A stretch of DNA of 14,254 nt from a virus (taxonomy: Duplodnaviria > Heunggongvirae > Uroviricota > Caudoviricetes). The DNA lies in IMG/VR virus record IMGVR_UViG_2721755727_000004, one strand, 5' to 3'. The notes below the pieces were generated by a model. That model was given only the letters and a program-made list of their open reading frames with translations. It was not told where the DNA came from and made no database searches. Of the stretch, positions 7,412 to 11,916 are shown piece by piece (the first letter of the stretch is position 1; every line of letters starts with the position of its first letter). The translations under genes were made by a program, and so were the position numbers.

Positions 7412-8779
7412 TTAAAGCGAGCGGATCCCGTAGGACTCAATGTGATCAGACAGCGTGTCTTCTTTCTCGTACAGCATGGCTCTGCCAACCGCCATAATCA
7501 GCGCAACTGCACCATCGATTTTGTTTTCCGCCTGCTCCTTGACGGGCTTCACCACATCATCGTTACCCGGAATGGTTTTGCCGACCACGTTGCCGATACA
7601 CCAGGTCATGATGGGATTGCCGTCATGATGAAAGCGCCCCGATTCAATCGCCGCTTCCAGCTCTTTCATCGGATCGGACATGTTGGTGTAGTTCTGAATG
7701 ATGGTGACGGGGTTCAGGTCTTCATCAGCAAGGTCATGTGACAGCCCGGTCGCCCCGAAGGGGTCGATGGGTGACTCACTGACCGGGCTGATTTTGTTCG
7801 CCGCTTTGGCCTCTTCGAGGATGTAGCGATAATCCACCTCCGCACCATCGGTAACGGTCAGAACGCCCATTTCCACCCATTTCTGAAAGCGTTCGGCTGT
7901 CCGGCGATCTTCATTTTTCTCGACGCTGTACACCGTGTCATACGGTACCCAGAAACGCGGGGCCACACTGTAGTAATGCGTTTTACCGTCAATCTCGCGG
8001 GTATAAAGTCGCGCCATGCTGTTCATATCCAGCTTACGCGCCAGGTCAAAGGCCAGAATGCACGGCTGCCCCTCGAACTGCTCAAGGGTCAGTGATTTAT
8101 CCTCGCAGCTCTGCCAGCTCACCAGGTTGAAATACGCCGAACGCGCCGACGCCCAGATATTGAGGTGTTTTGTTTTAAAGACGTTTGCCAGACGGGCGTT
8201 ATTTTTCGCACGCTGCTGCTGACTTAACAAAAATTCGCGATAAACCGACACGCCAATATTTGGATTGGCTTTTTCCAGCACCTGCGGGTCGGTCCAGTCG
8301 TCACCTTCATCAACGGTATAGATGATCCCGAACAGTTCATCGTTTGGCACCGAGCCGTTGAGCATCTCGATGACTTCCCGCCGTTTGTCGTAGCACGGCC
8401 CCTCAATGTTGTACCCGGCGGTGGTAATGGCCCACATCAGTGGCTGGCGTCGCGCCCCCATCCCGGTAAGCATCGTGGTGTAAAGCGCATCTGTGGCGTG
8501 CTCGTGATATTCATCCACCACGGCACAGTGGGGTGATGAACCATCACCCTGGCGACGCGCCTTACGCGTTAACCAGCCTTCTGCTTCCAGCCGTGCGATA
8601 GCCGTTCTGACGGTACTCATCCCCGCGCCAATCTGACGGGCAATGGTTTCAATTGATGGCCAGCACACACCTTCGTCATTACTGAAATCAGCCAGGCGGG
8701 CCATAATTGCCACGCTGGATAACTTCATGCCTGATGCAGCGCAACCATCCCATACATAGCCGGTTAATTTAGTGCTCAT
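7412..8779 (-). CDS. ymfN: Chimeric ORF: N-terminal replication-initiator-type HTH domain fused to terminase large-subunit C-terminal region
   Basis: 455 aa; residues 1-80 HTH ([48 protein letters not shown]); from about residue 85 a terminase region with Walker B-like AVVDEYHE and C-terminal nuclease-type motif [13 protein letters not shown]. Confidence 0.8.
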
Positions 8780-8788
8780 GACCGACCT

Positions 8789-9127
8789 CTATTTCCCTGA
8801 ATTTACGACGAAACTGTTCGAGCGGGCTGAAGCATTCATGCTCATAACCTTCGCGGAGGTAGATAACCCGTTGTGTTTCCGGCTCCCAACGAATGACTCT
8901 GACGGGCACTCCGTAGTGATCTTTGAACCAGCGGTTAACTTGTCGCAAAGGACTGTCTCCTTCTGCCGGTTGAAATCACCCACAGCCCACTCTGCAAAGC
9001 TGTGGGTTACAATTTCCCTGTCACCTGGTACATTCACTGCATAGCAATATTCCACCTTCGCTTTTCCACCCGGTACAGGAAGCGCAATCAGTTGCGAGCG
9101 ACGGTAGTGTGTTGTTAAACTGTTCAT
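8789..9127 (-). CDS. ymfM: Early-operon protein; candidate SOS-inducible cell-division inhibitor
   Basis: 112-aa ORF; start overlaps the ymfL stop (ATGA). Confidence 0.65.
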
Positions 9128-9693
9128 GCGTTAGTTTCTCCACAACCAGAAGCAATCGACGCCACGACGCCCGGAGCTGCACACTCGCGGGCGTCATTAC
9201 TTTCTGAAATGCAAAAAATTTTGTAGACAAGTGCTGCATGCTCCTGCAGCTTCGAAATTGAGAGATACAGCTCGTCGTTAATTGCTGTCTTCTCATGCGG
9301 TTCCACTACACCGTCTTCGATTGCTGAACGAATCTGTTTTGAATAACTGCCGATCTGTTCAATGACTTCCAGCAGACGCTGGTTAATATCGGCGTTGTCC
9401 ACATCCTCGACGTCAGGAAGAGACACAAAGACGCCATTTGCAGACTGCGCCACAGCATCAGCAATGAAGTGAGTGCCACCAGCACGCTGTAAAACCATTG
9501 CCCATCCCAGCGGGAAAATCTGATCGCCATCTGCACGAAGGCGGTTGAATAAAGCGTTTTCTGTTACATCGAGCCAGTCAGCCGCTTCAGCGTAACCACT
9601 CGGCAACGCCGCGATAGTTTTTCTGACAGCTTTCACGTACCACTCAGGCTGTTTTTCTATTTTCCAGTGATGCTTACCCACGATTAGCCTCAT
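9124..9693 (-). CDS. ymfL: Early-operon regulatory protein (CII-like position)
   Basis: 189-aa ORF immediately downstream of croE in the rightward early operon. Confidence 0.65.
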
Positions 9694-9724
9694 CGTTCTG
9701 TGGTTAAAAATTGAAAGTGTTCTG

Positions 9725-9925
9725 CTAATCTTTCGGATAGATATCCGGTCTTAAGTCAGATTTCGTAATTGCACCTGATGTGTATTGCTCAAGTTTTTTA
9801 GCCAGCACAAAACTGGCTTTTTTATAGCCATTGAAAACCAGCCGTAAGTAGCCAGGTGTTGAGCCAACTTTTCCGGCCAACTCGCCCTGCTGTTCTTTGG
9901 TTAAAGAGTCCCAATACGCTTTCAT
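9725..9925 (-). CDS. croE: Cro-like repressor
   Basis: 66 aa (MKAYWDSLTKEQQGELAGKVGSTPGYLRLVFNGYKK...) with HTH; divergent from the CI-like gene across an operator region; GGAGG RBS. Confidence 0.75.
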   Translation of the reverse strand: MKAYWDSLTKEQQGELAGKVGSTPGYLRLVFNGYKKASFVLAKKLEQYTSGAITKSDLRPDIYPKD

Positions 9926-9928
9926 ACA

Positions 9929-9951
9929 ATATGTACCTCCGGTGTACATAT
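9929..9951. promoter_or_regulatory. Operator palindrome ATATGTAC-N7-GTACATAT (OR-like site)
   Basis: Perfect 8-bp inverted repeat with 7-bp spacer between the croE start and cohE. Confidence 0.6.
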
Positions 9952-9979
9952 TACATGATTGAAATGAACCTTCAAGATA

Positions 9980-10000
9980 CTTGTACCTTAACGGTACAAG
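9980..10000. promoter_or_regulatory. Operator palindrome CTTGTACC-TTAAC-GGTACAAG (OR-like site)
   Basis: Perfect 8-bp inverted repeat, 16 bp upstream of the cohE ATG. Confidence 0.6.
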
Positions 10001-10015
10001 GGTTTTAATTTCGTT

Positions 10016-10690
10016 ATGAAAACAATCCATGACATCCGGCGGTCTAACGCCAGAAAACTGAGAGATGGTGTTGGCGGGAATTCTTCCTTTGCCACTATGA
10101 TTGATCGCGAGCCAACCCAGACCAGCAGGTTTATGGGAGATGGTGCTACTAAAAATATCGGTGACAGCATGGCACGACACATCGAAAAATGTTTCGACCT
10201 GCCTGTAGGATGGCTCGATCAAGAACACCAGACAACGAACATCACAAAAAAACCTGATGTTTCAATCACTAATAAACAAATCACATTAGTCCCTGTCATA
10301 TCATGGGTACAGGCCGGAGCATGGAAAGAAGTTGGATATTCTGAGGTTGATTTGAGCACAGCAGAAACGTATCCCTGCCCTGTACCCTGTGGGGAAATGA
10401 CTTATATCTTGCGGGTAATAGGTGATTCAATGATTGATGAGTACCGCCCGGGAGACATGATTTTTGTCGATCCTGAAGTACCTGCCTGCCACGGTGACGA
10501 CGTTATTGCATTGATGCACGATACAGGTGAAACCACCTTCAAAAGGTTGATAGAAGATGGGACACAGCGTTATCTCAAAGCGTTAAACCCAAACTGGCCT
10601 GAGCCTTACATTAAGATCAACGGTAATTGCTCTATAATTGGTACTGTGATTTTCTCAGGAAAACCAAGAAGATACAAAATCAAAGCCTAA
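10016..10690 (+). CDS. cohE: CI-like prophage repressor with LexA-type S24 autopeptidase domain
   Basis: 224 aa; N-terminal HTH, C-terminal S24 peptidase with GDSM serine motif (VIGDSMIDEY) and catalytic lysine region. Confidence 0.9.
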   Translation: MKTIHDIRRSNARKLRDGVGGNSSFATMIDREPTQTSRFMGDGATKNIGDSMARHIEKCFDLPVGWLDQEHQTTNITKKPDVSITNKQITLVPVISWVQAGAWKEVGYSEVDLSTAETYPCPVPCGEMTYILRVIGDSMIDEYRPGDMIFVDPEVPACHGDDVIALMHDTGETTFKRLIEDGTQRYLKALNPNWPEPYIKINGNCSIIGTVIFSGKPRRYKIKA

Positions 10691-11754: not shown

Positions 11755-11916
11755 ACAAAACAGAGAAGAGTATCCCCGGATGACGGGTTAATAACCCGAC
11801 CCATCCTGATAGCTGTGGCCACAGGTGCTCTTCTCTGTTTTGTGGAGAAACTAACCGACCGTGCAGGGTCGATATGCTGAGACTAAGCAGTTAGTGTAGT
11901 AATAAGGTGATCGCAT

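Follow-up and report, generated by a model that had tools for sequence, protein, structure and literature searches.

An in-frame fusion of replication initiator and large terminase remnants in the e14 prophage of Escherichia coli K-12 and a recurrent deletion breakpoint in the phage O gene

The ymfN gene of the e14 prophage joins the beginning of a phage replication initiator gene (O) to the end of a large terminase subunit gene (TerL). We consider it, with a probability of about 0.93, to have arisen incidentally through an O::TerL deletion while a prophage of the K-12 lineage decayed, and to be most likely a transcribed pseudogene with no selected function. The interpretation of ymfN as a fusion is right but already published, and the event is ordinary prophage decay. 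A replication-protein/terminase fusion is attributed to Mehta et al. 2004 (Mehta, Casjens and Krishnaswamy, BMC Microbiol 4:4) by PMC3614548, ymfN has been re-annotated as oweE and aaaE (PMC6018989; ymfM preprint), and these two are listed as b4692-b4693 (PMC4444293). The locus analyzed here is the same as this published one, with no difference. New here are the precise position of the joint (codon 78, GGT), the extent of the deletion and the genes it took as judged by an intact relative, and the distribution of the junction. The ymfN result matters little in itself, giving exact coordinates for textbook prophage decay already present in the K-12 annotation; the part worth follow-up is that the same few nucleotides of O end deletions in many independent E. 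coli lineages.

The window, by which we mean the whole stretch of 14,254 nucleotides that was analyzed, can be assigned from its sequence to the defective lambdoid prophage e14 of E. coli K-12, adjoining icd. Positions 7000-9200, around the open reading frame, match E. coli K-12 MG1655 and its laboratory derivatives at 100% identity, and the entire window aligns at the K-12 e14 locus with the invertible P segment as the sole rearrangement seen. The gene order between ycgX and lit (mcrA, pinE, invertible tail-fibre segment, ymfQ, ymfR, ymfL, ymfT/croE, ymfK/cohE, xisE, intE) agrees with this identity, running from ycgX/mcrA/pinE to intE/lit beside icd. The pinE-controlled P segment (window 3485-4995), which carries tail-fibre C-termini and assembly genes, lies in the orientation opposite to that of the MG1655 assembly NZ_CP032667.1 and aligns to it at 93.4% identity only, with length differences from which the ycgX-lit span of the window comes out 159 bp shorter. 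The features on which the following analysis draws are listed below.

7412-8779, minus strand: ymfN (b1149), 455 codons with an ATG start (list of open reading frames)
8546-8779, minus strand: oweE part, codons 1-78 of a lambda-O-like replication initiator, winged helix-turn-helix (DNA identity, Pfam, PHROGs)
8570-8713, minus strand: HTH_36 domain in the oweE part (Pfam)
8546-8548, minus strand: deletion joint, the GGT (Gly78) codon common to both parents, 3 bp of microhomology (ends of genome homology; three-way DNA alignment)
7412-8548, minus strand: aaaE part, residues 200-577 of an HK97/SfV-type large terminase (identity to the TerL gene of L003)
8378-8548, minus strand: TerL ATPase stump, ymfN residues 78-134, with Walker B (AVVDE) kept and Walker A absent (Pfam)
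7472-8344, minus strand: complete TerL endonuclease (RNase-H-like) domain, ymfN residues 146-436 (Pfam PF20441)
8786-8789, minus strand: GAGG ribosome-binding site, located within the end of ymfM, with the ATG 6 nt downstream (read directly from the sequence)
8769-8948, minus strand: ymfM (RefSeq annotation transferred from L001)
9124-9681, minus strand: ymfL (RefSeq annotation transferred from L001)
9725-9925, minus strand: croE/ymfT (RefSeq annotation transferred from L001)
10016-10690, plus strand: cohE/ymfK, divergent, coding for a CI-like repressor (RefSeq annotation transferred from L001)
7218-7400, minus strand: ymfR, downstream of ymfN
6811-7218, minus strand: N-terminal fragment of the portal gene, ending at a second deletion joint (6811-6814)

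The original prediction, made from the letters alone, described a 455-amino-acid reading frame fusing the helix-turn-helix of a replication initiator to a terminase, and the frame is present as claimed, ATG-started and on the minus strand. At the corresponding stretch of MG1655, RefSeq annotates two pseudogenes, a TerL without its N-terminus and a helix-turn-helix protein without its C-terminus. Profile searches bear out both assignments. Pfam places HTH_36 at residues 23-70 (E 7e-11), TerL_ATPase at residues 78-134 (profile positions 118-174 of 178 only) and TerL_nuclease (PF20441) at residues 146-436 (profile positions 4-284 of 286, E 3e-34). Among the PHROGs, residues 1-78 match 'replication initiation O-like' and 'primosomal protein' families (E 8e-32 and 3e-50), with PHROG 391 and 11896 as matches to this part, while residues 78-455 match 'terminase large subunit' (E 5e-132). 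The segment AVVDEYHE (residues 86-93) had been proposed as the Walker B region and is just that, CAVVDEYHE at residues 85-93 being the same as in the intact TerL. The terminase part had been taken to begin at about residue 85; its identity holds, but the joint sits at codon 78, seven codons upstream.

Each half of ymfN keeps only some of the hallmarks of its family. Lambda-O-like initiators (PHROG 391; 313-318 aa; Kati, vB_EcoS-569R4, vB_EcoM-689R6) share their N-terminal 78 residues with ymfN at 97-100% DNA identity, including the winged-helix DNA-binding domain, but unlike them ymfN has neither residues 79-318, with the C-terminal domain, nor the iteron origin within the gene. For the terminase part, the closest solved structure is HK97 TerL (PDB 6Z6D), to which residues 78-455 align over the Walker B/catalytic glutamate segment, the C-terminal ATPase sub-region and the RNase-H-like endonuclease domain, through the C-terminal IDG motif. 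At the DNA level this part is 96.7-98.3% identical to the TerL genes of the SfV group (SfV/SfII/SfIV) and 83.4% identical to that of ST64B. Unlike HK97/SfV-type terminases, ymfN lacks the first 199 residues and with them the N-terminal ASCE ATPase with its Walker A motif. Of its partner genes, those for TerS (P27 family) and HNH fell to the deletion and are not found in the window, and the portal gene breaks off at 6811-6814. A search of NCBIfam with ymfN gave no match. AlphaFold2 applied to the whole fusion with a 23-sequence alignment returned a mean pLDDT of 36.9 and a pTM of 0.25, values too low for the model to show any destabilising effect of the orphan ATPase piece.

We compared ymfN with two intact parents, a 318-aa O-like gene (L002 12062-13018) and a 577-aa TerL gene (L003 7404-9137). 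Nucleotides 1-234 of ymfN are 99.6% identical to the former and nucleotides 232-1368 are 99.9% identical to the latter from its nt 598, with one nucleotide difference; past the joint, identity to either parent drops to 24% and 33%. The shared GGT is Gly78 of O and Gly200 of TerL and stands in the same frame in both genes, so that the fusion reads through. Phage DNA matches to the terminase part all begin at query nt 228-242. When 5,426 complete E. coli genomes were searched with a 601-nt query over the joint, 2,240 gave matches, 282 of them end to end across the junction (a 121-nt query gives the identical 282) and a further 1,958 with one half only, the match ending at query positions 293-295 from either side. 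The ten junction-carrying genomes that were listed, in two samples, are all 100% identical across the query, and most are named laboratory strains of K-12, for example MG1655, BW25113 and CJ236. The heptamer GGTAACC stands 9 nt upstream of the TerL breakpoint and also at the O breakpoint. A deletion in one step is the simplest reading; alternatively, the two heptamers may first have been joined to each other and the joint then have slipped by 9 nt.

The content of the deletion was read from vB_EcoM-689R6 (ON470584.1), an essentially intact e14-like phage in the same place and orientation at icd. Its gene order is pin, mcrA, Mu-like tail, HK97-like head, TerL, TerS, HNH, lysis genes and Q, followed by DUF968, KilA-N, RusA, LexA-like, adenine methylase, yfdN, O, ymfM, ymfL, cro, cI, xis, int and icd. 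Window positions 6811-8548 align to its positions 16331-18068 (98.0%) and 8546-9705 to 28719-29872 (96.5%), and relative to it e14 misses 10,653 bp at the ymfN joint. Each half of ymfN matches a separately encoded full-length gene, the two lying 10.65 kb apart at icd in the intact phage. The missing DNA comprises 16 whole genes, among them yfdN, adenine methylase, LexA-like, RusA, KilA-N, DUF968, Q, the lysis genes, HNH and TerS, together with about two thirds to three quarters of O from its 3' side and the 5' third of TerL. The loss of the remainder of the replication gene, of Q, of lysis, of the small terminase and of the TerL N-terminus had been predicted, and all of it is confirmed gene by gene in this comparison.

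Among the deleted parts are the Walker A motif and the origin. The Walker A sequence PRKNGKS of the intact TerL, which aligns with RKNGKT of HK97 TerL (6Z6D), lies at about residues 115-121, upstream of the joint. An iteron array with a 15-bp period and about six copies of a GTCAAAATCTGAC core spans O nt 303-460 (L002 12364-12523), encodes a repetitive SKSDASKSD linker and differs in copy number among alleles; it is the replication origin of the phage group to which these intact relatives belong, falls wholly within the deleted part, and e14 has none. Accordingly, with origin and C-terminal domain gone, a YmfN protein would be unable to initiate replication; lacking Walker A, TerS and HNH, and with only a truncated portal gene beside it, it would be unable to package DNA either. 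An illegitimate deletion of ~10.65 kb, most simply a single event with the 3-bp GGT as microhomology, joined O codon 78 to TerL codon 200 and took with it the C-terminal part of the initiator, the iteron origin and the TerL N-terminus with Walker A. None of the observations speaks against this deletion origin.

A second deletion in e14, at window 6811-6814, accounts for ~12.65 kb missing relative to vB_EcoM-689R6. It joins the N-terminus of the portal gene (...GTGGTA^CC) to the baseplate-J gene (...GGGTA^TA), out of frame and with 4 bp of microhomology (GGTA, gene strand), and removed the protease, capsid, connector, sheath, tube and tape measure genes and most baseplate genes.

The expression signals of the initiator gene would have survived the ymfN deletion. 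The last 11 nt of ymfM, its stop included, lie inside ymfN, as in intact relatives, and with this overlap and the original ribosome-binding site kept, ymfN would be the final cistron of intact appearance in the croE-ymfL-ymfM early operon, probably repressed by the CI-like CohE and co-expressed with SOS genes. Published work describes ymfN as the fourth cistron of the croE operon (PMC6018989), with a transcript measurable by RT-qPCR (PMC5811629), and places it in the YmfT iModulon alongside sulA and recN (PMC12132413). Our scan of 6700-10400 showed no strong minus-strand terminator between croE and ymfN, and promoter-like hits in it came at chance rate. Protein-level evidence for YmfN, in the form of proteomic or ribosome-profiling data, was not found. 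The product, if made, would combine a winged-helix domain, a 57-residue orphan ATPase piece and a complete nuclease domain. An expressed DNA-binding/nuclease hybrid, as had been proposed, is possible, and nuclease activity is conceivable because the nuclease domain is nearly unmutated (1 nt change in the 1,137 of the terminase part) and the frame is open. Such low divergence is equally expected for a recent event. Since the junction occurs, among the genomes listed, only in K-12-type strains and the TerL part is 1 nt off an intact copy, there is no basis for inferring selection. In some genome-wide studies ymfN still figures as a 'putative transcription factor' or a 'DNA-binding transcription regulator' (PMC5811629). 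That label rests on the orphan helix-turn-helix, and the exact anatomy of the gene is a warning against such a reading.

The O breakpoint of ymfN (CGCCAGGGTA^ACC; window 8541-8548; O nt 232-239; L002 12293-12299) is a recurrent deletion endpoint. About ten independent junctions verified in DNA lie within 9 nt of it, in both directions (including those in L005, L006, L008-L011 and L013-L015). Those with their O coordinates are as follows.

ymfN: O kept to nt 231-234
L006 (P0005): O kept to nt 234-237, joined to TerL at another codon
L005/L012: O nt 237 joined to a side tail-fibre gene
L009: O nt 233-235 joined to a LexA-like gene
L011: O nt 229 joined to KilA-N
L013, L014 and L015: O nt 235 joined to three further partners
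K-12 CPS-53 oweS: the other side kept, from O nt 234-236
NCTC9038: the other side kept, ymfL joined to O nt 233-237

In the CPS-53 prophage of K-12 (L008 6001-6710, oweS/yfdO), O is kept from nt 234-236 to its end and joined 18 bp upstream of yfdP. K-12 therefore holds complementary halves of one O gene, nt 1-234 in e14 and the remainder in CPS-53. CPS-53 misses roughly the early-region block that is present in e14. The O::TerL fusion P0005, a methylase::TerL fusion (P0058), an O::tail fibre fusion (WP_086711726) and K-12 oweS are independent deletion events of the same kind as ymfN. Several independent fusions use the O breakpoint of ymfN within 6 nt; they differ from it in their partners or partner breakpoints and come from other strains and prophage backgrounds.

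A protein search gave the same picture on a larger scale. Residues 1-78 were searched against 1.84 billion representative proteins, of which 42 keep at least 76 of these residues at 96-100% identity, and 35 of the 42 depart from the shared sequence at codon 78, 79 or 80, nearly all of them continuing differently from one another. The sequences past codon 78-80 are TerS-like, sheath, capsid, RusA, Q, DUF968, tape measure, J, baseplate, LexA-like and O's own C-terminus, along with many out-of-frame tails, and several of these fusions are found in NCBI genomes or on long contigs. The codon that follows GGT begins with A in 34 of the 35 divergent proteins, from which it follows that most events keep O through A235. 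Microhomology with the partner is usually 1-4 nt, occasionally 6-8 nt, and is drawn from the last bases of the fixed end; this pattern agrees with a 3' end of defined position being joined to, or switching onto, a new template.

With these data in hand, other origins of ymfN can be weighed. A natural two-domain family, composed of a helix-turn-helix and a terminase-like nuclease and not produced by deletion, is next to impossible. Nothing but the open reading frame speaks for it, while the halves are 98-100% identical in DNA to separate genes with identity lost abruptly at one codon, and the intact relative at the same locus has these genes 10.65 kb apart. A natural family matching both halves end to end, which would have overturned the fusion, was absent from the top 120 of 6,187 homologues: in that set, ordinary terminases cover at most 88% of ymfN and carry no helix-turn-helix, and the only two other proteins with both domains are P0008, a ymfN copy with a late frameshift, and P0005, an independent O::TerL deletion fusion in another E. 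coli strain. More conceivable, yet still quite improbable, is that CPS-53 was the source of the early block of e14 (cohE to O nt 234) and that the ymfN joint marks one side of the translocation. CPS-53 (oweS/yfdO) keeps exactly the complementary part of O, from nt 234-236 onward, and lacks a 3.6-kb block equivalent to L002 8721-12295, and e14 carries the equivalent of L002 8712-12295. The far ends of the two blocks, however, overlap by 8-9 nt instead of abutting, and the far end in e14, which shares only ~90% identity with the reference, resembles ordinary mosaicism. The O breakpoint is moreover used by many unrelated deletions elsewhere, and because it recurs in the deletions of many strains, two independent hits in K-12 are unsurprising.

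Somewhat less improbable, though unlikely in our judgment, is that ymfN has been co-opted, its winged helix binding the iterons of incoming phages with the same O so as to block their replication or deliver the nuclease, in an SOS-timed form of superinfection exclusion. The open frame, the intact ribosome-binding site, the translational coupling, the complete nuclease domain and the transcription together with SOS genes would all suit such a role, as would the independent fusion of O(1-79) to the TerL nuclease in another E. coli lineage (P0005/L006). The junction, however, is seen only in K-12-type genomes with no divergence among those listed, and so gives no selection signal; no PADLOC defence-system profile matched ymfN at E <= 0.01; and TerL nuclease domains in isolation are generally weak and non-specific. 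At this very breakpoint the O N-terminus is also fused to dozens of unrelated partners, many of them out of frame, which points to a mutational hot spot and not to selection for the pairing of O with TerL. We accordingly retain the reading of ymfN as a by-product of deletion.

Breakpoints also cluster at other sites. In TerL, nt 1579-1584 (L003 8982-8987, equivalent to window 7562-7567; ...TIPG/N, CCGGGTA^ACGAT, with the slash marking the break in the protein) form a recurrent breakpoint of their own: at nt 1580-1582 at least eight different fusions keep the upstream side, with sheath, baseplate J, a glycine-rich tail protein and others as partners, and one (P0180) keeps the downstream side. 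Smaller clusters in O lie at nt 181 (GGCTA^) and nt 210 (GGTTA^). The motif GG(N)TA was derived post hoc from such sites. As an out-of-sample test, we searched with the first 85 residues of the adenine methylase, whose gene has GGTA at nt 253-256 as the predicted site. This site is the most populated breakpoint there (AAFG/N, TTTGGTA^AT; nt 253-258; L002 13761-13766), with six fusions in addition to two found earlier. Further clusters in the methylase gene fall at TGGAGT^ and CGGCTT^, and since these lack TA, GG(N)TA can describe no more than part of the pattern. Left out of the fusion counts were P0272, which ends in the translation of a Nextera adapter, and P0276, P0277, P0281-283 and P0286, which have frameshifts in a C-run.

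Several candidate causes of the O breakpoint were considered and set aside. A hairpin or cruciform at the site has DNA folding z-scores of 0.00 to -1.26, like those of shuffled sequences. A site of the BstEII/Eco91I type (GGTNACC) fits the O site and TerL nt 589 but neither TerL nt 1579 nor the methylase sites, and cutting of this type predicts ends at nt 232 or 237 as against the dominant end at nt 235. Quinolone-trapped gyrase favours scission before G according to the literature, whereas five of the seven recurrent breaks stand before A or T. Compared by eye with the sequence, Dcm/Vsr at an adjacent CCAGG, pseudo-sites of serine invertases, IS1 ends, RusA (which cuts before CC) and pseudo-Ter sites each disagree in cut position or sequence.

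We see even odds that GGGTA^AC (O nt 235) is a strong, sequence-determined deletion hot spot common to lambdoid prophages across E. coli, where one side of the break is preserved to within a few nucleotides and linked to nearly any other location, in either direction. If so, prophage decay would be channelled by a site-specific nick, break or replication stop and would not be randomly spread. A defined enzyme or replication barrier behind the hot spot would explain how prophages are disarmed reproducibly, with origin, lysis and packaging lost and immunity kept, and a defined cause would offer a testable mechanism for prophage domestication.

Other joints in these prophages came to light in the course of the analysis. 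The K-12 yfdM pseudogene (L008 7201-7467) ends 10 nt beyond the methylase site, at CCGTAC/CCGTGGTAACC, and has GGTAAC in the partner 4 nt away from the joint. Genes resembling yfdP-yfdQ-yfdR, which separate the early region from xis/int in the intact e14-like phage (L004 32139-34055), are absent from e14; window 11881-11898 is the boundary of the missing genes, at most 9 nt from the CPS-53 deletion endpoint upstream of yfdP. Finally, an e14-like prophage at icd (L006 2534-3871, GCA_012820275.1) carries a gene with a HEPN_Toprim_N domain in place of the lit gene of K-12 e14, which suggests that the slot beside the e14 integrase holds swappable defence cargo.
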